Source of the DNA: a virus
DNA length: 64,000 nt
Virus record (IMG/VR): IMGVR_UViG_3300029177_000001
Coordinates: 26,630 to 90,629 of that record
Strand: one strand, 5' to 3'
The translations under genes were made by a program, and so were the position numbers. Each line of letters opens with the position of its first letter. Within the stretch, counting starts at the first letter, position 1. This document shows, one piece after another, positions 752 to 55,170 of this stretch. The notes beneath the pieces are model-generated. The model had not been told where the DNA came from. It did not search any database and saw only the letters and a program-made list of their open reading frames with translations.

Positions 752-1392
752 GTAGACTGGACGAAAAAGAAATAGACGAGATATGTAGATTTTATGTAGG
801 AAACAACATGAAGGAAATCAGAAGAATTTGTGACAAGATTTTTTCTAGTACAAATATACCAAAAGGATATTTGGATGACTACTATGGAAAAGCGGTAGAA
901 ATTCTCGTGGAGAGCATAAAAACATACGATAAATTAAAAAAGTGTAAATTCAATACATATTATTATGGGAACCTTATAAGACGAAGAGAAACGTGGAAAA
1001 GAGATAATTTCAGGTTTAAGCGGTGTAATCTTGAAACAGACAAAAAAGGGAAAATTAAAAGGGATAGTAAAGGAAATCCTGTAATTATTACAGATATTTC
1101 TATACATATGAAAGTTGACCCAGATGAAGATTATACATTGGAAGAAAGCATCTCTTCAGGGTTTAATTTGGAGGATGAAGTAGAGAATAATATTTGTCCT
1201 ACTACAGATAGGATTGAAATGTACAAGAGTAATTTATCTTACAAACAACAAAAAGCGGTTGATCTTATTTGTTCTGGATATTCTCAGGAGGAGATTCTTA
1301 AAGAATTGCATATGACAGAGAGAGAATATAGAGATAAGATACTCGGATCTATGCAGCGTTATGAAAATGTAAAAATATTACTACGTAAGTAA
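748..1392 (+). CDS. sigma-70-family-like / HTH transcription factor
   Basis: C-terminal 'QQKAVDLICSGYSQEEILKELHMTEREYRDKI' resembles sigma region 4 / LuxR-type HTH. N-terminal 'YYGKAVEILVESIKTYD..KFNTYYYGNLIRRR' resembles region 2. Translationally coupled to upstream ORF. Confidence 0.5.
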   Translation: MSRLDEKEIDEICRFYVGNNMKEIRRICDKIFSSTNIPKGYLDDYYGKAVEILVESIKTYDKLKKCKFNTYYYGNLIRRRETWKRDNFRFKRCNLETDKKGKIKRDSKGNPVIITDISIHMKVDPDEDYTLEESISSGFNLEDEVENNICPTTDRIEMYKSNLSYKQQKAVDLICSGYSQEEILKELHMTEREYRDKILGSMQRYENVKILLRK

Positions 1393-1412
1393 AAAATTGG
1401 AGGAATATAATC

Positions 1413-2876
1413 ATGGCAAAGAAAATCAGAAAAAAGACTTTATCTCTGGAATCATACCTGGAGGAAATAGTAGAAGAGGATATCAGTGATAACCAGGATG
1501 TACAAAGGTTATTTTGTTGGGAAAATGGGATGATAAATGAGTTGATCAAAACGGTATTGACCGATGATTATATTCCTCCGATTATTTTGGGCGAAGAAGA
1601 TTTAGATGAAGATGTCGTGCAGCAATATATCGTAGATGGAATGCAAAGAAGTTCTGCATTGATTAAATTTAAGCATGAAAACTATAAAATTACAGCTACT
1701 TTAGAAGATCCGATTATCCAATATCAGAGAAAAAAGAAAGATGAAAACAATAAAATCTGTAAAGATGAATATGGAAAAGTTATTTGGGAATCTGTTGAAT
1801 ATGATTTGAGAAGAAAAACATATGAAATGTTGCCGCCAGAATTGAAAAAAATGTTTGATGATTATCAGATTGATATTACAATACATCAACACTGCACGAT
1901 GTCACAGATTAGTAAGTTGGTGAGAAGATATAACAATCATTTGGGAATGAATACATCTCAGAAAGCATTTACTTATATTGATTTACATGCAAGAAAAATA
2001 AGGACAATATCTGAGAAAAATAAATTCTTTAAAAATTGTATGTCTTGTTCCGGTAAACAGCAATCGAAAGGTATTAGAGAAAGACTTGTATGTGAATCTG
2101 TCATGACAACGTTTTTCTTTGATAACTGGAAAAGTGCAATAAAAAATATGAGCAAATACCTAAATGAGAATGCAACAGAAGAACATTTTGATACTGTAAA
2201 TGAATATTTTAGCAGGATTGAATCTGTGTGCAAAGATAATTTCACAGAAGTGTTTGTGCCAAAAAATGTTATTGTTTGGATTCCTGTGTTTAAAGAGTTT
2301 GCTAAATTTGGATTAGATGATATTAAGTTTAAGGATTTTGTAGAAGAATTTGAAAAGTCTTTATATAAAAAAGATGTAAATGGAGTAACATTTGACAAAT
2401 TAAACGAGGATCGTCATACAAAAGGCAAGGCTATTTTAAAAGAGAAAATTAACATCTTAACTGCTCTCATGAAAGAGTATTTACATATTAAAGAAGATGA
2501 AGGAAACTTTGTTGAAGTAGAAGAGAATAATGTAATTGAAAATGTTTGTACAGAACAGAATACACTAGAATTCATCAGACATAACGTAAAAGAAGATGTT
2601 ATCGAAGATGATATTGAATTGTACAAATCACTGCTAGAAGACTGGTCAGTGGAAGTGGATAATTCGTCAAAACTTCTTGAACCTGGAAATAATAATTCAT
2701 TACTTGCCGTAATTGCATACAGTATTGAAAATGAACTTGATGAAGAAATTCCGGCATGGATGATGAGTTTCTTTAAGAGAAACGATACATATATTAAAGA
2801 TCAGAAAGAGAATTATACATATATGGTGAATGATCTTAGTGAATTTTTGAGACATAAATATGAACTTGCTGGATAG
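1413..2876 (+). CDS. DUF262 (ParB/Srx-fold, GmrSD N-terminal-like) domain protein
   Basis: N-terminus 'QRLFCWENGMINELIKTVLTDDYIPPIILGEE...QYIVDGMQRSSALIKF' matches the DUF262 pattern (QR..W, IP.I, DGQQR-like 'DGMQR'). C-terminal 300 aa unassigned. Confidence 0.7.
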   Translation: MAKKIRKKTLSLESYLEEIVEEDISDNQDVQRLFCWENGMINELIKTVLTDDYIPPIILGEEDLDEDVVQQYIVDGMQRSSALIKFKHENYKITATLEDPIIQYQRKKKDENNKICKDEYGKVIWESVEYDLRRKTYEMLPPELKKMFDDYQIDITIHQHCTMSQISKLVRRYNNHLGMNTSQKAFTYIDLHARKIRTISEKNKFFKNCMSCSGKQQSKGIRERLVCESVMTTFFFDNWKSAIKNMSKYLNENATEEHFDTVNEYFSRIESVCKDNFTEVFVPKNVIVWIPVFKEFAKFGLDDIKFKDFVEEFEKSLYKKDVNGVTFDKLNEDRHTKGKAILKEKINILTALMKEYLHIKEDEGNFVEVEENNVIENVCTEQNTLEFIRHNVKEDVIEDDIELYKSLLEDWSVEVDNSSKLLEPGNNNSLLAVIAYSIENELDEEIPAWMMSFFKRNDTYIKDQKENYTYMVNDLSEFLRHKYELAG

Positions 2877-2893
2877 ATGGAGGTGAATAATAT

Positions 2894-3055
2894 ATGGATA
2901 AAACATTTTGGAACATAATGTCAGTAGGTGGATTAATTACATCGTGTTTAGCCGGCGCTAGATTATATGAAATTGGAGAAGAAGCATTTTTCTATGGATT
3001 TGTATTGGGTATCGGAGCATTGATGTTCGCTGCAAAATATATGGGAGATGAATAG
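2894..3055 (+). CDS. small membrane protein (53 aa)
   Basis: Not in ORF track (<60 aa). ATG 2894 preceded by ggaggtg. Translation MDKTFWNIMSVGGLITSCLAGARLYEIGEEAFFYGFVLGIGALMFAAKYMGDE has two hydrophobic segments. Confidence 0.45.
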   Translation: MDKTFWNIMSVGGLITSCLAGARLYEIGEEAFFYGFVLGIGALMFAAKYMGDE

Positions 3056-3159
3056 GAAAGAAAATGACAGTGGAAGAAATGCGACAGAAGATTGAAGAGC
3101 CGACAGGAGCAGAGATCGAGATTGTATAAATGTAATAATTAAAAAAGGAGAAATAAATT

Positions 3160-3924
3160 ATGTGTGAATTTAAAAGTGGAATTATTTTTAAGAATAGGGT
3201 GGAACTTGCGCCATTAGGGAATGAAAGTCATTCAAGTTTACTTGAAAACTTGGATGTAGAAGATAATGAATTTAATGCTTCTAAGAAATTTGTGAGAGCA
3301 GAATTAATTCCGCCAGAGAGATATGTTATCACTTCTGATATTTCAAAGTGGACTTATAAAGTCGATCAGGATATTGTGCCAGAATGGTATAGTAACGATC
3401 CAGAGAGATATGAAGAGGAATTTAAAGAATCTGTTAAGAATTTTATGGATAAAAATTTTACAGATGAATTTGGATATTATTGGACAAACATTCGAATGGA
3501 TGGAAAGATATATCATTTTATGTATGGAGTTCTTACGAAGATGAGTTTTGGTAGCAATAATAATTACGCAGAATCTTCTGTAAGAAAATATCTTAAAGAG
3601 CACAAACTTGCAAAAGACATTAAAGATAAATATGGGAATAGTATTGTTCCGTTTGAAAATAACTTGCTTAGTATGGATGGATTTAATGATTATGGCGTTG
3701 TAAAAGACGATGTATTATCTATTCCGACATTTTATTTATTCAGAAAATGTGGTGAAAAACTTCCATTAATCAATTATGCATACTGGCAGTCAACTCCAAA
3801 CCAGACACCGTCAAGAAAAGATTCTTCCTATGTTCAGGTTGTCTACAGTGGTGGGAACATGGGTTACGACGATTGCTGCTGGCTTGATCATGGGGTTCGT
3901 CCGTTTTTTATCACCGAATCTTAA
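3160..3924 (+). CDS. DGR variable (target) protein, C-terminal C-type-lectin/DUF1566-like fold
   Basis: C-terminus 'YWQSTPN...SYVQVVYSGGNMGYDDCCWLDHGVRPFFITES' contains the VR. The '...W..HGVRP' ending is typical of CLec-fold DGR targets. RBS aaaggag upstream of ATG 3160. Confidence 0.9.
   Translation: MCEFKSGIIFKNRVELAPLGNESHSSLLENLDVEDNEFNASKKFVRAELIPPERYVITSDISKWTYKVDQDIVPEWYSNDPERYEEEFKESVKNFMDKNFTDEFGYYWTNIRMDGKIYHFMYGVLTKMSFGSNNNYAESSVRKYLKEHKLAKDIKDKYGNSIVPFENNLLSMDGFNDYGVVKDDVLSIPTFYLFRKCGEKLPLINYAYWQSTPNQTPSRKDSSYVQVVYSGGNMGYDDCCWLDHGVRPFFITES
3826..3905 (+). repeat. DGR variable region (VR)
   Basis: 80-nt alignment to 4411..4490 at constant offset 585. 13 mismatches, every one at an A in TR. 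All 55 non-A positions identical. Confidence 0.93.
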
Positions 3925-3953
3925 ATCTGTTTATCTTGTCGATAACATTTTGT

Positions 3954-3998
3954 GGAGACGAAGACAGAACAATGCGCAAGCGTTGTTCGTAAGTCTCC
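3954..3998 (+). promoter_or_regulatory. stem-loop downstream of VR with GCAA (GNRA) tetraloop
   Basis: Inner hairpin 3967..3988 'gaacaatgc-GCAA-gcgttgttc' (9 bp including one G-U). Outer pairing ggagac(3954-3959)/gtctcc(3993-3998). Lies 49 nt 3' of the VR end. Confidence 0.7.
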
Positions 3999-4027
3999 GA
4001 AGAACTAAATGCAAGATTGGGGGTCAT

Positions 4028-4381
4028 GTGGAAGTTATTACAAAAGCTATTGATTTGATGCAGTATACATATTCTGTAACTTCAAATAAAAAGAGATATC
4101 CTGCGAAATATAGAATGCTTATAGAACGAATCCAGAATGAGTGTATGAATATATATGATTTCTTAATGAGCGCAAATAGAGTACAACTGAATATTGATAG
4201 ACAAGAAAGATTGGAATTGCAAACAAAATCGATTTCGTCATGTGACAAATTGTCCTGCTATGTTGAATTATCAATGAATATTAACCTTATAGGATCAGAT
4301 ACAGTTGAATATTGGCAGAAAAAGATATGCGATGTTAAGTACATGACAATAGCATGGAGAAGCAAAGATAAAACAAGATAA
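4028..4381 (+). CDS. avd: DGR accessory variability determinant (Avd)
   Basis: C-terminal 117 aa of ORF 3776..4381 ('VEVITKAIDLMQYTYSVTSNKKRYPAKYRMLIERIQNECMNIYDFLMSANR...'). Helical, basic, Avd-like size, and located between target and TR. Start uncertain: GTG 4028 after ggggg, or ATG 4058. Confidence 0.7.
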   Translation: MEVITKAIDLMQYTYSVTSNKKRYPAKYRMLIERIQNECMNIYDFLMSANRVQLNIDRQERLELQTKSISSCDKLSCYVELSMNINLIGSDTVEYWQKKICDVKYMTIAWRSKDKTR

Positions 4382-4410
4382 AATTTTTTTTGGTTGTTTG
4401 CTATATGACT

Positions 4411-4490
4411 TCCTATGTTCAGATTGTCAACAGTAATGGGAACATGAATTACAACGATTGCAACTGGAATAATCATGGAGTTCGTCCGTT
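4411..4490 (+). repeat. DGR template region (TR)
   Basis: Invariant copy of VR. Rich in AAC/AAT codons in the target reading frame (SYVQIVNSNGNMNYNDCNWNNHGVRP). Confidence 0.93.
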
Positions 4491-4609
4491 CTGGATCGGA
4501 AGACGAAATAGAGTAAGAGAAACACTGAAATTAGAGTCCCGATATCAAAAGAGCAAACAACCTTTCCTGTCTAATCAAAGACAGGATAAATACAAAGGTA
4601 GAATATATC
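4411..4609 (+). ncRNA. DGR template RNA (TR plus spacer region preceding RT)
   Basis: Non-coding 119-nt spacer between TR and the RT start contains hairpin cctgtct(4566-4572)/agacagg(4579-4585). ORF-track ORF 4390..4623 is just a translation of this RNA. Confidence 0.7.
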
Positions 4610-5647
4610 ATGATAAAAGGTAAAACAGATTTTGAAAAGGTATCGGATTTTGAAAATTTATATAAAGCGTATTTGGATTCAAAAGGTGGAAGAGGATTCA
4701 CAAAAAGCAGAATTAAATTTGAAATATCTGCCCTTGATGGGGTGTACCAGATTAAAAGACTTTTAGAAACAAAGAGATATGAAGTAGATAGATATAACAG
4801 ATTCAAAGTATATGAACCAAAAGAGAGAATTATAGAAGCAGGAAGTTTTAAAGACAAGATTGTGCAGCACAGTTTGTGTGACAATGTACTTCTTCCTATT
4901 TTAAGTAAGGAGTTTATATACACGAATTATGCTGGACAAGTAGGTAAAGGGACATTGTTTGGCTTAGACTGTTTGAAATATCAGATGTATTTAGCATATC
5001 AAAAATATGGATATGATTGCTGGATTATCAAAGGAGATATCAAAAAATTTTTTTATAATATTGAGCATGATGTTTTGAAAGATATTGTTTCTTACTTTAT
5101 ATCAGATTCAGATACATATTGGCTGTGCGAGAAATTCATTGATAGCACAAGTGAAAAAGGTCTACCGCTTGGAAATCAAGTTAGTCAGGTATTTGCTTTG
5201 TTATATCTCTCTGGTTTTGATCATTTTATAACCGGAGAATTAGGAATTAAATATTACGGGAGATACATGGATGATTTTTACTTAATTGTAGAATCAAAAG
5301 ATTATGCAAAATTCTGTTTACATGCTGCTGAAGAGTTTACTAAAACATTAGATATTGATCTGAATGAAAAAACTCAGATTATTCCTTTTAAAAATGGAAT
5401 TAAATTTTGTGGTTTTCACACCTATGTTACAAAAGATGGAAAAGTGATAAGAAAACTTGCAAATGAAAAGAAGAGAAAAGCAAAAAAGAAATATCGAAAA
5501 ATGGCAAAGATGTTAAGAGAGAATAAGTTATCAAAAGAAAAATTCCTAGAATCTTATGAATCTTGGAAGAATCATATTTCACATGGAAATTGTGTGAAAT
5601 TCACGTATGAGATGGACAAAATGGTGAATGAAATACTGTTTGGTTGA
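4610..5647 (+). CDS. DGR reverse transcriptase
   Basis: Motifs 'LPLGNQVSQVFALLYL' ([LIV]GxxxSQ, DGR hallmark), 'GRYMDDFYLIV' (YMDD) and 'IKFCGFH'. About 345 aa, typical DGR RT size. Confidence 0.93.
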   Translation: MIKGKTDFEKVSDFENLYKAYLDSKGGRGFTKSRIKFEISALDGVYQIKRLLETKRYEVDRYNRFKVYEPKERIIEAGSFKDKIVQHSLCDNVLLPILSKEFIYTNYAGQVGKGTLFGLDCLKYQMYLAYQKYGYDCWIIKGDIKKFFYNIEHDVLKDIVSYFISDSDTYWLCEKFIDSTSEKGLPLGNQVSQVFALLYLSGFDHFITGELGIKYYGRYMDDFYLIVESKDYAKFCLHAAEEFTKTLDIDLNEKTQIIPFKNGIKFCGFHTYVTKDGKVIRKLANEKKRKAKKKYRKMAKMLRENKLSKEKFLESYESWKNHISHGNCVKFTYEMDKMVNEILFG

Positions 5648-5796
5648 AATGTCGATTTCATCTGAAAATAAACACAATATATAGTGGTTCTGGTTAGGTA
5701 CAAATACTACATATTGTATGTATAATTCCTGAGATGGAAGTCATATACGGACAGTCATTGCAAGAAATGAATTGCAATGCGACAACTGTCACTTCG

Positions 5797-5901
5797 TCAA
5801 TTATCTCTTAGGATAATGGCGATAATGCTCATGGACGAATTCCCACTTCTGGAGCCGGAACCGCCAATAAGCATCGACATGAACCATATTATATTCAGCA
5901 T
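5797..5901 (-). CDS. candidate minus-strand mini-ORF (34 aa, hydrophobic)
   Basis: Minus-strand aggag (plus 5910-5914) lies 8 nt before ATG (5901). Peptide MLNIIWFMSMLIGGSGSRSGNSSMSIIAIILRDN. Lies in a 390-nt gap with no credible + ORF. Confidence 0.3.
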   Translation of the reverse strand: MLNIIWFMSMLIGGSGSRSGNSSMSIIAIILRDN

Positions 5902-6038
5902 AAAATCATCTCCTGGTTTCATGCAGACGAAAATATATCGCATGAATTTATCTGGATGATTTCTTGTATGTGGTGGTTGTCATAAAACAGTATATAACAA
6001 AATTTGAATGAAAGCAAATAGAAAAGGAGAATAAAACT

Positions 6039-6410
6039 ATGACAGTATATGATTTAGTAGCAATTGTGAATTTACTAGAAGACAAAAAACAAAAAGATTA
6101 TGGGTTTGCTTTATACAAGGAAGAATATGAATTACTTAGAACAGCAAGCTTAGAAAATACACTTGTAGTTGTTAATGCAAGAGGAAAAGATAGGAGAGTA
6201 TTAGGAAAAGTAAAAGTGATTTTACCTGCGAGTGTATATGGTAAATATCCTACAGCTCAGGTAGTTGGCGTTGTTAATATGGAGGCATATTCAAAACGTA
6301 AAGAGGAAGAAGAACGTATTGATAGAATCAAAGAAATAAATCGTTTAATTAATAAGAACAATAGAGAGTTAGTGAATTTAATGACAGAACTAAGAAAATT
6401 AGAAGGGTAA
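6039..6410 (+). CDS. hypothetical protein (C-terminal coiled coil)
   Basis: aaaaggag RBS before ATG 6039. No domain recognised. Confidence 0.6.
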   Translation: MTVYDLVAIVNLLEDKKQKDYGFALYKEEYELLRTASLENTLVVVNARGKDRRVLGKVKVILPASVYGKYPTAQVVGVVNMEAYSKRKEEEERIDRIKEINRLINKNNRELVNLMTELRKLEG

Positions 6411-6427
6411 AAGGAGAAATAAATAAT

Positions 6428-6610
6428 ATGAAATATCCATTCCAGTGCTCTAAATGTGGACACAAAGAAATTATTACAATGTCAATGAAAGAATACGTAG
6501 GAGAAGGGCATATGTGTCCTGAATGCGGAGAAGAAATGCAACGAGAAATTGACTCGATGGTCTGTAGAAGTATTGATAAAACAGGAGACTTTTACAGAAG
6601 CTTCAATTAA
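6428..6610 (+). CDS. zinc-ribbon protein (FmdB-like CxxC...CxxC)
   Basis: 'FQCSKCGH...HMCPECGEEM' has two CxxC pairs. aaggag RBS. Confidence 0.6.
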   Translation: MKYPFQCSKCGHKEIITMSMKEYVGEGHMCPECGEEMQREIDSMVCRSIDKTGDFYRSFN

Positions 6611-6624
6611 CGATTTATAAAAGT

Positions 6625-6695
6625 TGTGGATTAGTGTAACTGGTAGCACGATGCAGCGTGGCACATAAGTAAAGGTTCGATTCCTTTATCTACAA
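6625..6695 (+). tRNA. tRNA-like element with aberrant anticodon arm (possible pseudo-tRNA)
   Basis: Hand fold: 7-bp acceptor tgtggat/atctaca, U8, D arm gtgt-aactggta-gcac with GG, and perfect T arm aaagg-TTCGATT-ccttt. The 20 nt between position 26 and the T arm give no 5-bp stem with a 7-nt loop. No encoded CCA. Confidence 0.4.
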
Positions 6696-6696
6696 T

Positions 6697-6774
6697 TCAT
6701 ATGCAGAACAATTTCCTATACATGTTTCATGACTCCAATAAAATAAGATACATAAAGTTCTGCATATGATTTTT
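6697..6774 (+). terminator. long hairpin followed by T-run
   Basis: 13-bp perfect inverted repeat tcatatgcagaac (6697-6709) / gttctgcatatga (6757-6769), 47-nt loop, then ttttt (6770-6774). Confidence 0.45.
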
Positions 6775-6942
6775 CATTGGTGTTTATAATCAAATATCAC
6801 CTAAAGTAAATCAAATATTTAGAAACTGTAAACGTTGATTCAACAAACTATTTCATTTGTCGCTATTTGAAAATGTTTGTGAGCTGCATGTGATATAAGA
6901 TTGTAAATACCGATGTGATTAATATTAAAAGAGGTAAGTCAA

Positions 6943-7485
6943 ATGAGCAGTTGGACATATGTACATGGAACAATTGTTGTTTCTCCTCTAGGTAGGACAC
7001 AACATGAAAAGAGATATATTCTTGAAACCGCACTCGATCATCTTCCTGTCGTAACAGGGTCAGAAAGAGATATGGAAGTATATGTGATTCAAAAAAGAGG
7101 ACATAATTGTTCAAGTTTTTCTGACGAATTTCTTGAGAGAACAAATAATTTGAGAGATAGATATGGAGACAGAAATCGGAAACGAGGGTTCTTACGAACG
7201 CAAGACGAATATATTCTCGTTGTTGATGGATCACTACGTGATAGAGAGTTTAAAGATACATTTCAAGAATTTATGAAATGGATTTGTAGATTGTCAAAAC
7301 GAGTTATTGTATACGATGTAAATGTAAAAATTTGGGGATTTGATAAGCAATATTTTATCAATAATCCAGATCAGTTTTCTGATATGTATGAGTACAAAGA
7401 TAATTGGTGTAATTACTTAATGTGGGAATATGATAGAAATGAAGAAGGAAGTTTATTAAGTGGAAAGCCAGGGAAGAAAAGATGA
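6943..7485 (+). CDS. hypothetical protein (paralog of 25258..25647)
   Basis: aagaggtaag RBS. Shares 'MS.WT.V', 'LP..GSE..E' and 'G.LR....F.E..KW' with ORF 25258. Confidence 0.6.
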   Translation: MSSWTYVHGTIVVSPLGRTQHEKRYILETALDHLPVVTGSERDMEVYVIQKRGHNCSSFSDEFLERTNNLRDRYGDRNRKRGFLRTQDEYILVVDGSLRDREFKDTFQEFMKWICRLSKRVIVYDVNVKIWGFDKQYFINNPDQFSDMYEYKDNWCNYLMWEYDRNEEGSLLSGKPGKKR

Positions 7486-7883
7486 GAAAACCTAAAGTAG
7501 AAAATAAATACAACTTAACAATGAAGAAAATCCAAAAACTCAAAATTGGTGATGAGTACAAAATTAAGAAACCTTTATTTTGGAGAAATAATATTATTAA
7601 TGCATGGTGTATTAATGGAACTGTTGGAACGTATCAGGATATAAAGTACTGTACATATAATGAATTTTGGATAGGGATATATGATAAACCATATTGCAAT
7701 AGTAGAATTCGTGCTTATTGTAATTGTTGGGGAGGAATGGGTACTTATAAATTTGACAAGTTTTTTAGACCTGAAGATATTGAGTGTGAAAATGATTTAA
7801 AAGTACAGGAAGAGTTGTTAAAAACAATAAATAATTTGATTGATGAAGGGATTTTGGTGATGGAAGATGGACGGAACAGTTAA
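7482..7883 (+). CDS. hypothetical protein
   Basis: ATGA overlap with upstream ORF. No domain recognised. Confidence 0.55.
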   Translation: MRKPKVENKYNLTMKKIQKLKIGDEYKIKKPLFWRNNIINAWCINGTVGTYQDIKYCTYNEFWIGIYDKPYCNSRIRAYCNCWGGMGTYKFDKFFRPEDIECENDLKVQEELLKTINNLIDEGILVMEDGRNS

Positions 7884-8079
7884 ACAATTTTTAAAAAATA
7901 ATCCGTCAGTGATAGTTTCAATACGATATTATCCATTTAATGACGAATTTGAAGTAAGATTGAGCAATTATCATACAAATAAACATGCATATATGATATT
8001 TCGTGATATAAATGAAATTTCATTAGATAAAATGGTTTGGATTGTTAGTAATAGATTTAGAGAAGAATTGTTGGAGTGA
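7867..8079 (+). CDS. hypothetical protein
   Basis: Plus-strand ORF in collinear array. No domain recognised. Confidence 0.5.
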   Translation: MDGTVKQFLKNNPSVIVSIRYYPFNDEFEVRLSNYHTNKHAYMIFRDINEISLDKMVWIVSNRFREELLE

Positions 8080-8087
8080 TTATAAAT

Positions 8088-8402
8088 ATGAACGAGAAGA
8101 AAGTTAGAGAAGCGATAGGAAGGCTCCAAGTTGGGATTAATGCGAAAAGAGAAATGATAAAGCATAATAAAGCATTTTTCCAGAAACAAGATAACAGTTA
8201 TTTGGAAAGTGATATTGAGGTTTATTGTGCAGCAATCGAAGCATTGGAAAAGCAGTTACCAAAGAAAACTATAGATAAGAGTTGTGTGAAAGATAATGAT
8301 ACTATTTACGGATATGTTGGTATATGCCCTAGTTGTAACGGTATTGTTGACGATAGTATGATTGTTTGTGATTGTACACAAGTACTTGACTGGTCGGAAT
8401 AA
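8088..8402 (+). CDS. hypothetical protein, C-terminal Cys cluster
   Basis: ORF track 8076..8402. ATG 8088 follows ttggagtga. 'CPSCNG...CDC'. Confidence 0.55.
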   Translation: MNEKKVREAIGRLQVGINAKREMIKHNKAFFQKQDNSYLESDIEVYCAAIEALEKQLPKKTIDKSCVKDNDTIYGYVGICPSCNGIVDDSMIVCDCTQVLDWSE

Positions 8403-8452
8403 TATTCAAGTTCCCTGCGAGTAATCGTGGGAGAGCGGAAAGGTGGAAGAAA

Positions 8453-8662
8453 TTGAAGAACCCAAAGAAATGCCCGTTTTGTGATTCCGACAGTGGATAT
8501 TACATGCTGGAAAGAGTGCATAGAGCTTTATTGTTTAATTTTGACGGTGATCCGATCGGAGGAACGGAAGATGTGACAGACTACGCGGGGCGTAGAAAAC
8601 GATGTATGAACTGTCACAAGATACTCCCCAAAAAATTGTTTGAGGAAGTGATGGAAAAGTAA
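8453..8662 (+). CDS. zinc-ribbon protein
   Basis: 'KKCPFCDS...RKRCMNCHK'. TTG start after aaaggtgga. Confidence 0.5.
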   Translation: MKNPKKCPFCDSDSGYYMLERVHRALLFNFDGDPIGGTEDVTDYAGRRKRCMNCHKILPKKLFEEVMEK

Positions 8663-8725
8663 ATTATTATTCCAAGTTTCAGAAGAGCATTTGGAAAAAT
8701 ATTTTGAACCCTTGGAGGTGGAGTG

Positions 8726-8884
8726 ATGAAAACAATAATTTACACAGTAGATGACGAAGAACCAGATTGCAATAGATGTGATCATTGTTGCGGCGAAGAT
8801 TATTATTGTATCAAACAATGTGGAGCAGAACATGGGTGGAACGGATACGAAAGGTTAGAGAGAATTGAAAGTGATGAGGAGTAA
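8726..8884 (+). CDS. small Cys-rich protein (52 aa)
   Basis: Not in ORF track. ttggaggtggagtg RBS directly before ATG 8726. MKTIIYTVDDEEPDCNRCDHCCGEDYYCIKQCGAEHGWNGYERLERIESDEE. Confidence 0.5.
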   Translation: MKTIIYTVDDEEPDCNRCDHCCGEDYYCIKQCGAEHGWNGYERLERIESDEE

Positions 8885-8886
8885 CC

Positions 8887-9117
8887 ATGTGGAAAATATT
8901 TATTGAGTATGACGATAAGAGTAAAATTACATTAACAGGAAAACACAAAGATATTCCGCTAAGGCTTGCATTAAAATATAACCTACTGTATGCAAATTCC
9001 CAAAGCTGCATAGGTGCAAAATATCAACGATATCCAAAAAAGAATTATCCTGAAATGAGCTTAATGGATAAAATCGAGGAGCTGGAAATGATAGAGAGCG
9101 AGTTGGAGGTGGAATAG
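8887..9117 (+). CDS. hypothetical protein
   Basis: gaggag RBS. Plus-strand array. Confidence 0.55.
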   Translation: MWKIFIEYDDKSKITLTGKHKDIPLRLALKYNLLYANSQSCIGAKYQRYPKKNYPEMSLMDKIEELEMIESELEVE

Positions 9118-9330
9118 ATGGATCTAAAAATGGAATATTTAGGAATGGACACTATGACTTACAATTATCTTCTTCGTGCAGGCGCAAGATCAATATTAGA
9201 TGTATGTGATATTTTAAATGGCAAGAGAGCAATGCAGAGAAAAATTCCAGAATACGTTTTGAGAAAAGCGAAGGAATATGTTGAGACACAAGAAAGTATT
9301 TTGGGAGTCCGGTTGTTGGGAGAAGAGTAA
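9118..9330 (+). CDS. helix-hairpin-helix protein resembling RNA polymerase alpha C-terminal domain
   Basis: 'MDTMTYNYLLRAGARSILDVCDIL' resembles the RpoA-CTD 'L.LS.R..N.L.RAGI.T..DL' motif. ttggaggtgga RBS. Confidence 0.4.
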   Translation: MDLKMEYLGMDTMTYNYLLRAGARSILDVCDILNGKRAMQRKIPEYVLRKAKEYVETQESILGVRLLGEE

Positions 9331-9500
9331 TGAAGTATAACAGACAAAAGTTTTGCGATTGTAGCGACAAAGAAAAGTTGCGAATTGTAAAGGAAGAATT
9401 AGCACTTGAAACACATGACAGAACTACGAAAGATGATTTATTGATGCTGCTTGATTGGACGTATAACAGATTAATAAAAGGTGATTTGGAGGTGGAGTGA
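9330..9500 (+). CDS. small hypothetical protein (56 aa)
   Basis: Not in ORF track. ATG overlaps the upstream stop (TAATG). Ends at TGA overlapping the next start. Confidence 0.4.
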   Translation: MKYNRQKFCDCSDKEKLRIVKEELALETHDRTTKDDLLMLLDWTYNRLIKGDLEVE

Positions 9501-9898
9501 TGAAGATATATGATAAATCAGAATTAACGGGATTCTTCGAAGTAAAACCTACAGCTCAACCGCTCGCCGAAACAAAAGAGAATGTATATATTGGAGATAT
9601 TTTAAGGATTGATTGTAAATTATATAGTGTTTGTATGGTGGCAGCGAGAAGTAGATATGCTGTTGTGAATAAACTTAATATCATAGAATTTCCTGATAAT
9701 CCGAAAGAACAGGTAGGAACAAATGAAATTGTATGTCCTTATTGTCTTGAACAAACAGAAGGATTCGAAATGGATGATAGTGATGATGATTACGAATGTC
9801 CTTGCTGTGGTAGTCGTTTTTCATATCAAAGGGAAGTGATAGTTGCATATAATTCTCAACCGATTTCAAAGAATGAAAATATTTTGGAGATGGAATAA
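9500..9898 (+). CDS. zinc-ribbon protein
   Basis: ORF track 9497..9898. ATG 9500 after ttggaggtggagtg. 'CPYC...CPCCG'. Confidence 0.55.
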   Translation: MKIYDKSELTGFFEVKPTAQPLAETKENVYIGDILRIDCKLYSVCMVAARSRYAVVNKLNIIEFPDNPKEQVGTNEIVCPYCLEQTEGFEMDDSDDDYECPCCGSRFSYQREVIVAYNSQPISKNENILEME

Positions 9899-10779: not shown

Positions 10780-10962
10780 ATGTTAGAAGATACGAAACAA
10801 CAGTTGCAAATTGTTCTTGATTTGCTGAGAAAATCATTGATAGATAATGGAGTTTCTATGGGAATATCAGGAAATAAAATTATGTTTTTTGATACAAAGA
10901 AATATTTATTAACAGGAAAGTTTGATGGATTTTCTGTAAATATTGATAACTTAGTTAAATAA
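10780..10962 (+). CDS. hypothetical protein
   Basis: Plus-strand ORF in array. Confidence 0.45.
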   Translation: MLEDTKQQLQIVLDLLRKSLIDNGVSMGISGNKIMFFDTKKYLLTGKFDGFSVNIDNLVK

Positions 10963-11287: not shown

Positions 11288-11292
11288 GGGAT

Positions 11293-11865
11293 ATGAAAAC
11301 GATCTATATTGCAGATGATGGCAAGCAATTTGAGGATGAATATGAATGTAGAACCTGTGCTAATTACAATCCATTAAGGATGTTGTATGAAAAAGAAAAG
11401 AATGGTGTTCAGTTAGGCGTTCCGATTGAAGTAGTACCACTTGTATATGAAGGAACTGATAAATCAAAAATCCAAGAATTATTAGATAAAGATGATAATG
11501 ATGGTTGAGAAGGCTTGATGCTTAATAAGGATACTAAGTGGAAGTACAAGCGTAATAATGGATTCTTGAAAGTAAAATCATGGAAACATGCAGATTTACT
11601 TTGTACTGGCGTTATTGAGAGAGAAGGCAAAAATAAAGGAACTTTTGGGTCAATTGAATGTGATTATAAGGGATTCAAATTATGAGTACATGGCTTTACT
11701 GATGAAATGAGAGATTATTATTGGAATAATCCAAATGGGATTATTGGTAAGATTGCACAGATTAAATATAAGGGCGAAACAAAGAATAAGCAAGATGGCA
11801 TATCTGGACAGTTTCCAGGTTTCCAGTGTATTAGACATGATAAGACAGAGCCTAGCTATTACTAG
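11293..11865 (+). pseudogene. ATP-dependent DNA ligase relic (C-terminal motif IV-VI/OB part only) with two in-frame TGA codons
   Basis: One frame reads '...PLVYEGTDKSKIQELLDKDDNDG*EGLMLNKDTKWKYKRNNGFLKVKSWKHADLLCTGVIEREGKNKGTFGSIECDYKGFKL*VHGFTDEMRDYYWNNPNGIIGKIAQIKYKGETKNKQDGISGQFPGFQCIRHDKTEPSYY'. EGLMLK, LKVK, GFTDE and R.DK are ligase motifs. TGA at 11506 and 11683. No KxDG adenylation motif upstream. Confidence 0.6.
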
Positions 11866-11918
11866 ACTTTAGCCTTAAATCATCGGTTTTATTGTGGTTT
11901 TTGAAAGTAGGTGAATGT

Positions 11919-12434
11919 ATGAACGAAATGTTGAAACTTTGTATAGGACAAGGTTATGTGCCAGCAGATTGTAAATTAGATGGCATGTTGGTTTGGTTAT
12001 TAATCAATGAAGGTAAAAATCCTTGTGACGGATGTAACGCAAATTGTGTGCATAGAAGATGTTCTCACTGTGTCAAAAACGAATATGACAACTATAGAAA
12101 AGAAAAATTAGAACATAGAGAACGAATTGAAAAGAGGAAATCATTAGGCACTAATTCAGAAGCAATTATATATGTTGATACTGATTACGACAGTGCATTA
12201 ATAATGGCTATTGAGCCAAATAGTGAAAAGGGGTATTCGCTTAGATGTAAAGGAGCAGACGAAGCATCTCATTACATAGAAATTATGTGTAGTAAACACA
12301 AAGCAAGGCAAGTGATAATACCGTTAAATGGTTGGGGAGTAGCAATATATGATTGTTTAAAAATAAGAAATTTGAAAGATATAGATATTGTTCCACTTAG
12401 ATGCATAGGCGAAAAACTCAATAATTGGAGGTAA
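11919..12434 (+). CDS. hypothetical Cys-rich protein
   Basis: ORF track 11892..12434. ATG 11919 after aggtga. 'CDGCNANCVHRRCSHC'. Confidence 0.55.
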   Translation: MNEMLKLCIGQGYVPADCKLDGMLVWLLINEGKNPCDGCNANCVHRRCSHCVKNEYDNYRKEKLEHRERIEKRKSLGTNSEAIIYVDTDYDSALIMAIEPNSEKGYSLRCKGADEASHYIEIMCSKHKARQVIIPLNGWGVAIYDCLKIRNLKDIDIVPLRCIGEKLNNWR

Positions 12435-12439
12435 AACAA

Positions 12440-12562
12440 ATGACAACGGTTGAGAAGATAGATTACATGATTCAGTCTTTGAAGTTGGCAAAAAGACTTC
12501 TGCGAAGCAGTGTTAAGGAAATGGTTAGAAAATGTTTTAAATATAAAAGATTAGTTTTATAG
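12440..12562 (+). CDS. small hypothetical protein (40 aa)
   Basis: Not in ORF track. ttggaggt RBS before ATG 12440. Confidence 0.4.
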   Translation: MTTVEKIDYMIQSLKLAKRLLRSSVKEMVRKCFKYKRLVL

Positions 12563-12575
12563 GAGATGATCAAGA

Positions 12576-12956
12576 ATGGTTGATTTAGGTATTACAGAAA
12601 ATGATTTTCATACAGAATGGTATTATTTAACAGGCAGGGAAAATCAGTTATTAAAAGAGTTGTCAGAATGCGTTGGCGATAAAGAAATTATCGTAGTAGC
12701 AAGAGAATTGAAAAAAGTGGTATCTGAACTTCAAACAAAATACGGAGAATCGGATGAAAAGAAATATAAATATGGAGTTTGTTTATCAGCGGAAGATTAT
12801 TCTGATGGTTATGTAAGGTTGACAAGAAGAGAAGCTGAAATTGTTTTTTATGCGACAAGCGAATGTAATTGGGAAGATGCACATTCGAACCCTTATAGTG
12901 GTTCATTTTACATTGATTTGGATAATCCTGTTGAGATTGACGAAAAGGGGATGTAA
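12576..12956 (+). CDS. hypothetical protein
   Basis: aggag RBS. No domain recognised. Confidence 0.55.
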   Translation: MVDLGITENDFHTEWYYLTGRENQLLKELSECVGDKEIIVVARELKKVVSELQTKYGESDEKKYKYGVCLSAEDYSDGYVRLTRREAEIVFYATSECNWEDAHSNPYSGSFYIDLDNPVEIDEKGM

Positions 12957-12959
12957 ATT

Positions 12960-13778
12960 ATGGATAACAGCAATTTAGCAAAAAGAATGAAACAATATGA
13001 AAGTGTTTCAAAATCAACATTGATAAGACGTATGCCAGTGATCATCAGGCTTGACGGTAGAAGTTTTCATACATTTACAAAAGGGTTTAAAAGACCATTC
13101 GATGATGTATTAGTAAAAACAATGCAAGAGACAATGAAATACCTTTGTGAAAATATTCAAGGATGTGTATTAGGTTATACGCAGTCTGATGAAATTACAC
13201 TTGTGTTAGTAGATTATAAGAACTTAGATTCTCAACCTTGGTTTGATGATGAAGTGCAGAAGATATGTAGTATTGCAGCAAGTATGGCAACTATGGCTTT
13301 TAATAAAAATTTTGAACTTTTTTCTTTAACGATGCGATTAAAAGACTCTGTAGAAAGTAATAAACTTGGTGCAGTATATAAACAAGCAATGAATAAAGGT
13401 GCAATGTTTGATGCAAGATGTTTCAATATTCCAAAAGAAGAAGTAACTAATAATATTTACTGGAGACAACTTGATGCAACGAGAAATTCTATTCAAATGG
13501 TAGGACAAGCTAATTTTTCACATAAAGAATTACAGAATAAATCGTGCAATCAAATTCAAGACATGTTATTTACACAAAAAGGAATTAACTGGAATGATAT
13601 TTCTACATATTTAAAAAGAGGAAGTTGCTGCATTAGAGAAAATTATATTTTTGAAAATTCAAACCCAAATGGTGAGACGTGTGTAGAACGAAGTCGTTGG
13701 ATAATCGACAAAGAAATCCCTATTTTTAAGGGTGAGAATAGAGAATATATTAATAGATTGGTATATGTAGGAGAATAA
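12960..13778 (+). CDS. tRNA(His) guanylyltransferase family protein (Thg1-like, 3'-5' nucleotidyl transferase)
   Basis: 'MKQYESVSK...RMPVIIRLDGRSFHTFTKGFKRPFDDVLVKTMQETM...GYTQSDEITLVL' matches the Thg1/TLP N-terminal catalytic pattern (RxDG..F, KP.D, SDE). Confidence 0.85.
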   Translation: MDNSNLAKRMKQYESVSKSTLIRRMPVIIRLDGRSFHTFTKGFKRPFDDVLVKTMQETMKYLCENIQGCVLGYTQSDEITLVLVDYKNLDSQPWFDDEVQKICSIAASMATMAFNKNFELFSLTMRLKDSVESNKLGAVYKQAMNKGAMFDARCFNIPKEEVTNNIYWRQLDATRNSIQMVGQANFSHKELQNKSCNQIQDMLFTQKGINWNDISTYLKRGSCCIRENYIFENSNPNGETCVERSRWIIDKEIPIFKGENREYINRLVYVGE

Positions 13779-13782
13779 AACT

Positions 13783-14202
13783 GTGATTTCAAAAGAAGAA
13801 ATAATGAAGAAAAAAGACAGGTATAAACTACTTTTACATGCAAAAGATCAGTATTCAAAGGATTTTAATCGTGACTATGAGTTTAAGCATTTATCAAAAA
13901 ATACATTACATAAATTACTAAAGCAATACAAGCATTCGTGTATGGCTGAATGGAGCTATTGTTGCTATGGATTGTATCAAAATTGTTGGCAGGAACCATA
14001 TTTTGAAGGAAATTGGGATATGTCTCAGGAAAGAGTTGACGACGTGATCAGATATGTTATTGATAAAACTGCTAAGATCTGCAGAAAAGATAGCAGAATC
14101 TTGTATTGCAAAGATAATAATGAGATAAACATTGTAATTGTGGCAAGAGATGTATGCAAAAATGATTACTTGATTACATTTACAAATGAGGAAATGGAAT
14201 GA
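13783..14202 (+). CDS. hypothetical protein
   Basis: Plus-strand ORF. GTG start, or ATG 13804. Confidence 0.5.
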   Translation: MISKEEIMKKKDRYKLLLHAKDQYSKDFNRDYEFKHLSKNTLHKLLKQYKHSCMAEWSYCCYGLYQNCWQEPYFEGNWDMSQERVDDVIRYVIDKTAKICRKDSRILYCKDNNEINIVIVARDVCKNDYLITFTNEEME

Positions 14203-14543
14203 TGAATGTAATTGTTTTAAGTAAAAGAGAGCCGAATATAATTGATGTAGAATACTGGTGCGAAATTACGGAATATCTGGATGAATACATTAGGAAAAAT
14301 TATGGTAAGTTTAATCATTATTTTAGATGTTACATATATGACTGCAGAAGCTGGTGCAATAATACAATAGCGATTCGTATGCCAGGATCAACAATTGGAT
14401 GCATTCAGTTTGACGACGAAAATGTAATTACAGAATGTTGTATTTATGATGATGTAATATCTAAGAGTAGATGTTTTTCTGAAGACATCAATGAACGACT
14501 AAAACGGTTTGTTGGAAGAACATTGAAATTTCAAGAAGAATAG
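14199..14543 (+). CDS. hypothetical protein
   Basis: ATGA overlap with upstream ORF. Confidence 0.5.
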   Translation: MMNVIVLSKREPNIIDVEYWCEITEYLDEYIRKNYGKFNHYFRCYIYDCRSWCNNTIAIRMPGSTIGCIQFDDENVITECCIYDDVISKSRCFSEDINERLKRFVGRTLKFQEE

Positions 14544-14553
14544 AGGTGAAAAA

Positions 14554-15153
14554 GTGAATTATTATATTAGTGATTTACATTTATTTCATAAGAATGTGAC
14601 GAATGAAGGTTCTAATTTTGACAATAGACCATTTGATACATTGGAAGAAATGCATAAAGTGATTAAGGAAAATTGGAATTCGAAAATTACTAATGCGGAT
14701 CATGTCTATATTTTAGGAGATTTGGCATGGAAGGAAAACGAAGATGCGATTAAACTTGTTAGTACATTGCGTGGTAATAAACATCTAATTCTTGGCAATC
14801 ACGATAAAGCAACAGATCAAAGATATAAACAGTTATTTGTAGAAATAGCAAATTATAAAGAAGCGAAAGATATGATTGACGGAAAAGAGCATCATGTCGT
14901 AATGTCTCACTTTCCATTGGCTTTTTGGAATCATCAGCATCATTACAGAAGAGATGGAAAAGAGCATAAAGTGTGGTCTGTTCACTTATATGGGCACGTA
15001 CATAATTCTATGGAAGAAGATTATTATCAAGAGTATATCAAAAAACTAAACAGTGAATATGAAATTAAGTGCGTAGCAAAAAATGTAGGGTGTATGTTGT
15101 GGAATTATACACCAGTAACATTGAAAGAAATTTTAGGCAGTAAAGGAGAATAA
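14554..15153 (+). CDS. calcineurin-like metallophosphoesterase
   Basis: Motifs 'ISDLHLFH', 'ILGDLAW', 'GNHD' and 'GHVH'. gaggtga RBS before GTG. Confidence 0.8.
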   Translation: MNYYISDLHLFHKNVTNEGSNFDNRPFDTLEEMHKVIKENWNSKITNADHVYILGDLAWKENEDAIKLVSTLRGNKHLILGNHDKATDQRYKQLFVEIANYKEAKDMIDGKEHHVVMSHFPLAFWNHQHHYRRDGKEHKVWSVHLYGHVHNSMEEDYYQEYIKKLNSEYEIKCVAKNVGCMLWNYTPVTLKEILGSKGE

Positions 15154-15157
15154 ATTT

Positions 15158-15475
15158 ATGAGAGCAATGCTAAGTCAACCAATGGCAGGAAAAACAGATG
15201 AAGAAATTGTAAATACAAGAGAAAAGGCAATTGAATATCTAAGAGATAGAGGATATGAAGTTGTGAATACTTTGTTTACAGACGAATGGTATTCAAAACA
15301 AGTGAATGAATGTAATATTACAAATAGAGGACTCTTCTTTTTAGCAAAATCTTTAGAGCAGATGTCGTTATGTAATATTGTTTATTTTTGCAAAGGGTGG
15401 GAAGATTACAGAGAATGTCGTATTGAACACGCTGCAGCAATCTCTTATGGATTGGATATTATTTACGAGGAGTAA
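15158..15475 (+). CDS. hypothetical protein (weak DUF4406 / nucleoside deoxyribosyltransferase-like resemblance)
   Basis: 'LSQPMAGKTDEEI...RGYEVVN' gives only a weak pattern match. Confidence 0.5.
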   Translation: MRAMLSQPMAGKTDEEIVNTREKAIEYLRDRGYEVVNTLFTDEWYSKQVNECNITNRGLFFLAKSLEQMSLCNIVYFCKGWEDYRECRIEHAAAISYGLDIIYEE

Positions 15476-15948: not shown

Positions 15949-16776
15949 GTGATTATTATCGGAGAGTACAAGCCAATTAATTTTACATATTATGATCCGA
16001 GAACCAGCATTTTTAAATCTGGGAAAAGTGACAGAGAAAGTATTTCTGTTTATAAGTGTAATAATTGCGAAAATTGCGATGCTTATAAGCGTAAATGTTG
16101 TGTGATGCTAAATTGGAGGCATAGTTGTCCTTACGGCACAATTGAAAAGAAAGAAGGTTTTACAAAAGCAGCACGTAAATGCGGATATTTAGTAAGTGAA
16201 TATAAGGGAAAATACGGAGATGTTGAATATGCGTTAAAATCATTAAATTTTGTATGTGAAATTGGAGATTATGTTTTTCTTGGATTGCCGCATCTTAATG
16301 GATATAATAATCCAATTCGAAATAGTGATTTCTTTGTAGATGATGACATGATTAAAAAAGATGAATTTACACCTGAATTCGTTGTAGAGCTTATTAAATA
16401 TAAACCATATGCGCTCATGGGTGGAGTAATTTCTTCTTATCAGAAAGAATATGTTCCAAAGTTTTGTGATCAACTAAAAAGACTTATGCCTGACATATAT
16501 AGAAAAGTATGTGAAATCTATCCGGAAATTGAACAGATAGTGGAGAATATTGATTATATAGACAAGATGGCAAAATTAATGACACTTCTTCCTGGGAAAG
16601 TTAAATTATCCACAGATATTCTTGAGTGGGATGGTGAATTATTACATGGGAAAGGAAAACAAATTTCTTTTTGGAAACTAAATGATGAGGAAGTGATTAT
16701 TTTTCCAAATAAAAACACGATAGTAACAATTTGTGATAATTCAACGGTGACTGAAGAGACAGAATTTATTGAATAG
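15949..16776 (+). CDS. hypothetical protein, N-terminal Cys cluster
   Basis: 'CNNCENCDAYKRKCC'. GTG start after aggag. Confidence 0.55.
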   Translation: MIIIGEYKPINFTYYDPRTSIFKSGKSDRESISVYKCNNCENCDAYKRKCCVMLNWRHSCPYGTIEKKEGFTKAARKCGYLVSEYKGKYGDVEYALKSLNFVCEIGDYVFLGLPHLNGYNNPIRNSDFFVDDDMIKKDEFTPEFVVELIKYKPYALMGGVISSYQKEYVPKFCDQLKRLMPDIYRKVCEIYPEIEQIVENIDYIDKMAKLMTLLPGKVKLSTDILEWDGELLHGKGKQISFWKLNDEEVIIFPNKNTIVTICDNSTVTEETEFIE

Positions 16777-54887: not shown

Positions 54888-55166
54888 ATGTTTAAGTTTT
54901 TTAAATGTAATCACGAATATAAAGAAGTCGGAAAATATTACACAATCGTCATGGATTATGAGTGCAAACATATTATGGCTGTTTCCGTATCCGAATGTAC
55001 AGTTTGCGGAGAACGAAAATCTGATGTTGTATATGAAGAAACTATTTCTTCAAATTCAGAATACGAAGTTGATGACGTGATTCAAACATTAGAAGATAGA
55101 GGGTTTTGTCCAAAATTAAACTTCATGTTGGATGATTATGAACGAAGAAAAAATGCAAAGGAGTGA
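54888..55166 (+). CDS. hypothetical Cys-containing protein
   Basis: aaagga RBS. Preferred over the overlapping alternative-frame ORF 54880..55080. Confidence 0.5.
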   Translation: MFKFFKCNHEYKEVGKYYTIVMDYECKHIMAVSVSECTVCGERKSDVVYEETISSNSEYEVDDVIQTLEDRGFCPKLNFMLDDYERRKNAKE

Positions 55167-55170
55167 TTTG

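Follow-up and report, generated by a model that had tools for sequence, protein, structure and literature searches.

An intact Thg1-like protein gene in a large phage of gut Lachnospiraceae as a possible tRNA 5'-end repair addition to an RNA-end toolkit, next to an independent metallophosphoesterase cassette

The IMG/VR virus record IMGVR_UViG_3300029177_000001 carries, within the 64,000-nt stretch at its positions 26,630 to 90,629, an open reading frame (ORF) for a Thg1-like protein (TLP; 12960-13778, plus strand) and, a little downstream, one for a calcineurin-type metallophosphoesterase (MPP; 14554-15153, plus strand). This stretch, here called the window, represents about 64 kb of a genome of approximately 140-165 kb. 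A preliminary description of the window regarded the two genes as the first half of a dispersed tRNA repair kit, and the question raised by the locus is whether they form a unit at all and what the TLP could contribute to the phage. The reading preferred here, on a modest balance of probability, is that the intact TLP would serve as a tRNA 5'-end repair addition to an RNA-end toolkit encoded elsewhere in the window, with the MPP, at most, loosely attached to it as a healer of 3' ends.

The 272-residue product of ORF 12960-13778, starting with ATG, matches PF04446 with an E-value of 2.5e-33 (115.2 bits, cut-off 29.2) and phrog_4717, annotated as 'tRNA-His guanylyltransferase', with an E-value of 1.2e-90. 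Two of the three profile checks proposed for the locus concern this gene; PF04446 was exceeded, while PF14413 (Thg1C), at 22.9 bits, fell just short of its cut-off of 26.3. Among solved structures the closest relative is the TLP of Bacillus thuringiensis (BtTLP, PDB 4kgk), with an E-value of 2.3e-63 and 50% identity over 226 aligned residues; residues 148-270 of the window protein align to BtTLP 126-239 (E = 2e-28). The assignment to the Thg1-like family made earlier is thus confirmed and can be narrowed to the bacterial TLP type. In the structure of BtTLP the conserved carboxylates D30, D75 and E76, equivalent to D29, D76 and E77 of human THG1, hold two metal ions, and functional explanations were given for E12, R28, H35, R131, R147 and M158 (PMC3701042). 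Loss of the catalytic carboxylates, named beforehand as the observation that would count against a Thg1-like enzyme, is not seen: they are retained in the window TLP as D32, D77 and E78, along with the nucleotide-binding or supporting residues E14, R30, H37, R153 and R169. M180 occupies the place of M158, where eukaryotic proteins have N. Altogether, nine key residues of BtTLP are identical in the window protein, the exception being H33, which makes a main-chain contact and is replaced by S35.

Eukaryotic Thg1 enzymes add a non-templated G-1 to tRNA-His. Those of human, Candida and yeast (PDB 3otb, 3wbz) share the fold family and catalytic carboxylates with the window TLP, but match it far more weakly (E about 1e-07), and where their alignment rows read 'HINNLYN' the window protein has 'DATRNSI' and BtTLP has 'DASKNSI'. 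Because it is far closer to BtTLP and lacks the eukaryotic stretch, the window protein is, judged by its sequence, of the TLP type associated with 5'-end repair rather than of the eukaryotic Thg1 type. The study of Rao et al. describes BtTLP as preferring 5'-truncated tRNAs by 5- to 160-fold in kinetic terms, adding templated nucleotides to them and not being restricted to tRNA-His (PMC3061083). With the same three carboxylates, the same supporting residues and 50% identity, the window TLP would be expected to share the activity of BtTLP (PDB 4kgk/4kgm), namely activation dependent on ATP or GTP followed by templated 3'-5' addition to 5'-truncated tRNAs.

The window TLP differs from BtTLP, in addition to S35, in being carried by a mobile cassette of a phage and in having a hypervariable insert of about 30 residues (approximately 117-147) between the palm domain and the C-terminal half. 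The insert varies in length and sequence among TLPs of this clade of gut phages, and is missing in BtTLP. The ratio of non-synonymous to synonymous substitution rates (dN/dS) is 0.06-0.12 against five relatives, and the gene is intact and under purifying selection. Homologues occur in 164 of 50,697 GenBank phage records, compared with 1,269 for the MPP, so that the earlier remark that Thg1-like proteins are uncommon in phages was roughly right. Those annotated within phrog_4717, in Fusobacterium phage Fnu1, Bacillus Bastille-like phages and Staphylococcus phage PMBT8, are 45-48% identical to the window TLP and are likewise accessory genes of large phages under the same 'tRNA-His guanylyltransferase' annotation. 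They differ in the insert, which is absent in the Bacillus and Staphylococcus phages and shorter in Fnu1, and in that no MPP stands next to Thg1 in the three neighbourhoods inspected (Fnu1, PMBT8 and Mawwa).

The preliminary description had linked the TLP to a gene cluster at 35-39 kb, and this cluster does encode RNA-end-modifying enzymes, all on the plus strand. Its first gene encodes RlaP, a Pol-beta-type nucleotidyltransferase (35091-36119; PF10127, E = 8.9e-21; phrog_388). It is followed by a gene for a 320-residue protein with a predicted polymerase palm-and-fingers fold, a 'mini-polymerase' (36119-37081), then by a CCA-adding tRNA nucleotidyltransferase with an HD domain (37059-38396; PF01743, E = 7e-40, with PF13735 and PF01966; NF009814, 302 bits against a cut-off of 290), and finally by a DHH/DHHA1 phosphoesterase (38397-39302; PF01368 and PF02272, both no more than about 2 bits away from their cut-offs; phrog_4771, E = 8e-30). 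RlaP extends RNA 3' ends by one or two nucleotides and acts on damaged tRNAs in vitro (PMC12776372).

A census of 72 viral loci holding the 320-residue ORF found RlaP immediately upstream of it in every case, the CCA-adding enzyme following it in 56 and the DHH protein in 43. A Thg1 gene lies within 5 kb upstream in six of these loci, and directly abuts RlaP in L165, L166 and L168 (the same as L031, L013 and L038); at least 13 of the 72 contigs, identified by shared contig names, also carry a Thg1 of the window type. In a separate lineage, L186, whose RlaP is only 58% identical, Thg1 is again followed directly by RlaP, and this direct adjacency in two lineages is more than would be expected by chance. 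The most complete arrangement was found in L030, where MPP, Thg1, a P-loop protein, RlaP, the 320-residue ORF, the CCA-adding enzyme and the DHH protein lie within 11 kb. Across the census, no MPP was found within 6 kb of the RlaP pair. Thg1 is an optional addition to the conserved core of the RlaP cluster.

Whether Thg1 and MPP belong together was assessed in 24 contigs syntenic with positions 6-27 kb of the window, anchored on the conserved ORF 15949-16776, in which all window ORFs were scored. Thg1 is present in one of these relatives and MPP in 12, and none has both. In the sole Thg1-bearing relative (L104, also listed as L004) the TLP is 96% identical, and a conserved 114-residue ORF runs straight into the homologue of ORF 15481, leaving neither MPP nor the gene downstream of it. 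That 114-residue ORF (14199-14543, plus strand) is one of the two that separate Thg1 from MPP in the window. It forms a conserved flank of the variable region, being present in 23 of the 24 relatives, and recurs at varying positions in 14 of 80 further viral Thg1 loci. The other, a 139-residue ORF (13783-14202, plus strand), is a variable cassette found in 4 of the 24, with or without Thg1; neither product has a match in Pfam, PHROG or NCBIfam. Downstream of MPP lies a gene for a 105-residue protein of the DUF4406 family, resembling nucleoside 2-deoxyribosyltransferases (NDT; 15158-15475, plus strand; PF14359, E = 5.8e-05; phrog_355, E = 1e-18). It is present in 9 of the 24 relatives and always with MPP, so that 9 of the 12 MPP-bearing relatives have it, which suggests that the two make up a two-gene cassette of nucleotide-directed enzymes.

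On the other side, the left part of the Thg1-bearing variable insertion (11353-12959, plus strand) consists of a ligase remnant, extending to 11865, and the orphan ORFs 11892-12434, 12425-12562 and 12576-12956; none of the 24 relatives contains anything equivalent to the segment 11515-12956, which immediately precedes Thg1. Nucleotide comparison by blastn showed recurrent break points in the relatives at about 11350, at 13775 or 14202, and at 14553, 15162, 15470 and 15634, all of which are gene boundaries. The region is a hypervariable hot spot of early genes in which single genes are swapped. A scan for promoters and terminators over 10.5-17.5 kb found nothing that separates or joins the genes. 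In L030 a 490-residue ORF between MPP and Thg1 (7687-9159) looks, on inspection by eye, like an IS605-type TnpB/OrfB-like transposase, and would fit a traffic of mobile elements in the accessory region.

Outside the syntenic relatives, 11 of the 80 further viral loci have an MPP homologue no more than 10 kb from Thg1, in variable placement and never nearer than about 2.3 kb, and 4 of 60 Thg1 loci from bacterial assemblies have one within 8 kb. Only one of these 140 loci, L191, has a phrog_547 MPP within 1 kb. Since MPP is present in about half of the relatives and the genomes are about 150 kb long, these counts are close to chance. Thg1 and MPP are therefore independent accessory cassettes, juxtaposed by gene-by-gene recombination, and not a conserved operon. 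The proposal that together they make up half of a repair kit is not borne out: no relative among the 24 has both, and the nearest one bearing Thg1 lacks MPP.

The MPP itself had been rightly recognised, down to its coordinates and its position two ORFs downstream of Thg1. The 199-residue protein, starting with GTG, matches phrog_547 (aq_1665-like) with an E-value of 8e-39 and PDB 1xm7 with 1e-11, followed by LpxH, the PolD DP1 exonuclease, the MJ0936 phosphodiesterase and YfcE; the third profile check, PF00149, gave no match to ORF 14554-15153 at E <= 0.01. All five metal-binding motifs are present (D7xH9, G55D56, G81N82H83D84, H119 and G147H148xH150) and are invariant or nearly so over 10 diverse homologues. 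By these signatures the protein is a phrog_547 binuclear metallophosphoesterase. Heal-and-seal RNA repair is performed by T4 PseT (Pnkp) with Rnl1 and by bacterial Pnkp-Hen1 (CthPnkp). The earlier statement on the fold of Pnkp healing enzymes applies to the superfamily as a whole, whose fold is that of the CthPnkp phosphatase. It says nothing specific about the window MPP, for which neither sequence nor structure comparison indicated a particular relatedness to CthPnkp or to the lambda phosphatase domain; family scans of the window found no polynucleotide kinase or RNA ligase fused or adjacent to it. The role of the MPP would be either the healing of RNA 3' ends, which is plausible, or one in nucleotide or DNA metabolism.

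Support for an RNA-healing role comes from other phages. Ten annotated MPP neighbourhoods were inspected, and all MPPs tested belong to phrog_547. Five of them, representing four unrelated groups, have a T4-Rnl1-type RNA ligase and a protein of about 135 residues no more than about 1.5 kb from the MPP: Vibrio phage JSF10 (L244), Escherichia phage nom (L246), Pseudomonas phage B31 (L247, a Pakpunavirus), Escherichia phage Antha (L249) and Salmonella phage KE22 (L261), with nom and KE22 both belonging to Vequintavirinae. The ligases of JSF10, nom, B31 and Antha all match PF09511. For the small proteins, matches were to PF13671, a family of P-loop kinases, in JSF10, B31 and Antha, and to phrog_2071 and the polynucleotide-kinase family phrog_505 in nom; the KE22 genes were identified by the record annotations 'RNA ligase' and 'ATPase' alone. 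The small gene of nom (nom_72) carries the annotation 'putative phosphoesterase'. As a kinase, a phosphoesterase and a ligase follow heal-and-seal logic, this set looks like a split version of heal-and-seal RNA repair distributed over three genes.

Two individual loci point in the same direction. L191, a relative of the window on a 98-kb contig binned with Agathobacter (contig JAZQZJ010000049.1 of a metagenome-assembled genome, MAG), contains at 3709-9725, in this order, genes for an HD protein, RtcB (PF01139, E = 1e-56), a helix-turn-helix protein, the phrog_547 MPP, a 240-residue ORF, Thg1 and a second MPP, and is the only one of the 140 loci in which Thg1, a phrog_547 MPP and an RNA ligase occur together. 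A scan for RtcB elsewhere in the phage group, with the L191 protein as query, gave only two unrelated contigs, neither of them with Thg1 or MPP close by. The MPP homologue of L252 is located 200 bp upstream of a homologue of ORF 36119.

No match to the RNA ligase, RtcB, polynucleotide kinase, Macro or 2H families was found among the scanned ORFs of the window, so the absence of a visible RNA ligase noted earlier holds for recognised families. Apart from an intact NAD-dependent DNA ligase (55132-57135) and what is left of a decayed ATP-dependent one (11290-11865, plus strand), the window has no ligase of a recognised family. The remnant retains the C-terminus of the ligase, with motif IV ('EGLML') and the end of the OB domain, lacks the N-terminal half, and contains in-frame TGA codons at 11506 and 11683; it is 37-43% identical to the C-terminus of an intact 436-residue ligase in L079. 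Genome-wide recoding of TGA was rejected as an explanation, as TGA ends 30 of 111 called genes and readthrough gives no coherent longer ORFs. The 'KFDG' in ORF 10780-10962 was likewise rejected as ligase motif I, this small ORF being conserved as such in relatives without the remnant. The missing RNA ligase is not a gap: the reactions of the TLP, RlaP and the CCA-adding enzyme are polymerisation or nucleotide addition, which need no sealing, and the gene set therefore fits the repair of RNA ends rather than of internal breaks.

Bacterial Thg1 genes were linked by Anantharaman et al. (2010) to polynucleotide kinase, Macro domains and RNA ligase, and RNA repair was proposed for Thg1, also in large DNA viruses (PMC2904730). 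These published contexts of Macro domain and ligase are echoed in L079, where positions 790-4863 encode Thg1 (290 residues), a weak Macro-domain protein, the intact ATP-dependent DNA ligase, a NadE-like protein, named by eye from its 'SGGKDS' motif, and a lambda-like phosphatase (PF00149). The survey of jumbo phages by Iyer et al. (2021) listed three enzymes, RlaP, the CCA-adding enzyme and Thg1, as putting back the bases that RNA ends lose to host RNases, and regarded calcineurin-like domains as occasional 3'-phosphatases (PMC7824862). The interpretation in the preliminary description is thus the published one. The wider idea of a ligase-free repertoire for RNA-end repair is reasonable and draws partial support from gene neighbourhoods in other lineages, but is neither new nor proven. 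As in that survey, RlaP, the CCA-adding enzyme and Thg1 occur here in one phage, for the same proposed purpose; the genome, at about 140-165 kb, is not that of a jumbo phage, and its RlaP stands next to a polymerase-fold protein instead of an RNA ligase.

By homology, the TLP would activate a 5'-monophosphate RNA end with ATP or GTP and then add Watson-Crick-templated nucleotides in the 3'-5' direction, the template being the 3' strand of the tRNA acceptor stem, so that 5'-truncated tRNAs could be rebuilt with no ligase required. The genomic context suggests that it would do so as an optional addition to the toolkit of the clade, comprising RlaP, the polymerase-fold protein, the CCA-adding enzyme with its HD domain and the DHH protein, which probably acts on the ends of RNAs and not on breaks within them. 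The combined set may preserve usable tRNAs in the face of host nucleases that trim acceptor ends. The MPP might perhaps remove a 3'-phosphate or 2',3'-cyclic phosphate and so allow the nucleotidyltransferases to extend.

Several observations weigh against this reading. Thg1 is absent from 23 of the 24 close relatives, which keep the RlaP cluster, and is consequently dispensable; a distance of 10 kb or less between RlaP and Thg1 was seen in 12 of the 80 loci, about the level of chance for genomes of 150 kb. No bacterial defence leaving 5'-truncated tRNAs was found in the literature searched. PtuAB of Retron-Eco7, tried as a candidate 5'-end-trimming tRNase, was rejected, the published cut being near U47 and not at the 5' end. 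In vitro, BtTLP does repair truncated tRNAs, but we know of no natural source of 5'-truncated tRNAs in bacteria. The literature searched also contained no experimental work on any phage TLP, and to our knowledge the biological role of bacterial and phage TLPs is still unproven. As to the MPP, its closest solved structure is without known function, its co-varying partner in this lineage is the DUF4406/NDT-like gene, and in five other lineages, half of those sampled, it is found among genes for primase, helicase, exonuclease, resolvase, 5'-nucleotidase or deoxyribosyltransferase.

The last points bear most directly on the explanation that the two genes are simply unrelated neighbours, the TLP repairing tRNA 5' ends and the MPP with its DUF4406 partner acting on nucleotides, cyclic-nucleotide signals or DNA ends, with no part in RNA repair. 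This is a credible alternative, although a somewhat doubtful one. It accounts for the co-variation of the two cassette genes, of which DUF4406 never appears without MPP, for the 12 relatives with MPP and no Thg1, and for the phrog_547 genes of cr1_1, Beyonphe, Adolin and pSal-SNUABM-01, which adjoin genes for primase, helicase, exonuclease, Holliday-junction resolvase, NDT or 5'-nucleotidase. In the jumbo-phage survey, moreover, calcineurin-like orthologues of T5 A1 are interpreted, together with DHH enzymes, as counter-signalling phosphodiesterases (PMC7824862). Against this explanation stands the repeated occurrence of phrog_547 next to Rnl1 and a kinase, in four unrelated groups of phages, and next to RtcB and Thg1 in L191. 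Quite improbable is a substrate other than tRNA, whereby the TLP would repair or extend the 5' ends of phage transcripts or small RNAs, or make 5'-adenylylated or 5'-guanylylated ends for another enzyme. Anantharaman et al. suggested a wider repair of small RNAs, or ligation via a 5'-App intermediate (PMC2904730), the hypervariable clade-specific insert could alter the choice of substrate, and the neighbours of Thg1 are inconsistent within the clade. Nevertheless, the characterised TLPs in the literature covered all act on tRNA-like substrates, and the partner that Thg1 adjoins in two lineages is RlaP, with its in vitro action on damaged tRNAs.

The family annotation 'tRNA-His guanylyltransferase' invites a further explanation, that the TLP matures tRNA-His by adding G-1 to the phage or host tRNA, and in the study of Rao et al. 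BtTLP is indeed able to attach a templated N-1 to tRNA-His and gives weak complementation of yeast thg1 (PMC3061083). Against this stand the TLP signature of the window protein in place of that of eukaryotic Thg1, the preference of BtTLP for truncated tRNAs reported in the same study, and the tRNA genes themselves. No tRNA-His gene was found in the window by ARAGORN or Rfam, nor within 10 kb of Thg1 in any of 60 relatives, among them L063 with its array of 13 tRNA genes ahead of Thg1, and for this reason a dedicated role in tRNA-His maturation is unlikely; as an account of this gene it is considered very improbable. ARAGORN detected no tRNA in the window, and Rfam a single tRNA-like gene (6625-6695, plus strand; 46.9 bits) with no encoded CCA, in which the acceptor, D and T arms are normal and the anticodon arm is aberrant, having only a 3-bp stem, with a 10-nt loop. 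The tRNAs of the related loci L013 and L038 were given a two-base anticodon by ARAGORN.

The preferred reading, a TLP repairing tRNA 5' ends as an addition to the RNA-end toolkit, may be extended, tentatively and with low expectation, to a ligase-independent pathway that would rebuild tRNA acceptor ends in this clade of large Lachnospiraceae phages as a counter-defence to nucleases trimming tRNA ends, such as Cas12a3, whose immunity cleaves tRNA 3' tails (PMC12851939). In such a pathway the 3' end would be cleaned by the MPP and/or the HD and DHH phosphoesterases, the 3' strand refilled by RlaP and the polymerase-fold protein of about 310 residues, which has some giant-virus relatives with fused R3H domains, and the tail restored by the CCA-adding enzyme; in some genomes the 5' strand would be refilled by the Thg1-like enzyme. 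The finding is otherwise an ordinary one, phage TLPs being routinely annotated. Its value is that the lineage offers a natural experiment, in which an intact and selected TLP gene is optional and near-isogenic relatives lack it; comparison of host ranges or tRNA ends between relatives with and without Thg1 could reveal the damage that the gene answers.

A more unusual item, lying outside the question of Thg1 and MPP and deserving separate attention, is the RlaP-coupled protein encoded by ORF 36119-37081. It has no sequence match in Pfam, PHROG, NCBIfam or PDB, and no description of its family was found in the literature searched, although the family is large, with 1,577 clusters at 50% identity. 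The AlphaFold model is confident, with a predicted local distance difference test score (pLDDT) of 94.9. The near-invariant residues of this predicted structure, D118 ending a strand, K158 and R161 on a helix, and D205-E206 in a hairpin, are where motifs A, B and C of a polymerase would lie. The protein was also considered as a hidden RNA ligase or kinase, which was rejected on account of the predicted polymerase palm-and-fingers fold. The closest predicted viral structures are those of uncharacterised giant-virus proteins, some of which are annotated with an R3H domain, while a medusavirus match is annotated as a DEDDy 3'-5' exonuclease. Pairing of RlaP with a homologue of the 320-residue protein persists at 35-41% identity in L255, whereas L251 and L253 lack it.

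The G+C content of the window is about 31%, its GC skew is constantly positive and all its plausible genes are on the plus strand. Positions 0-40 kb are occupied by tightly packed small early genes with few family matches, and the replication module, at 40-64 kb on the plus strand, includes genes for a Sak4-like protein, a DnaB-like helicase, a primase, an exonuclease, a 1,037-residue DNA polymerase, an exonuclease V/Dda-like helicase, FolD, the NAD-dependent DNA ligase and NrdD. No nucleotide-level similarity to the window was found among GenBank phages, and IMG/VR contains many relatives on contigs of 90-200 kb. The nearest Thg1 homologues in bacterial assemblies are on contigs of about 150-190 kb from isolates and MAGs of Lachnospiraceae (Fusicatenibacter, Roseburia, Blautia, Agathobacter and Lachnospiraceae bacterium A4), and on these grounds the window is part of a large phage of gut Lachnospiraceae. 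Positions 3160-5647 (plus strand) harbour a probable diversity-generating retroelement, in which 3776-4381 encodes an Avd-like protein (phrog_3206) and 4610-5647 a reverse transcriptase (phrog_1423, E = 1e-106).

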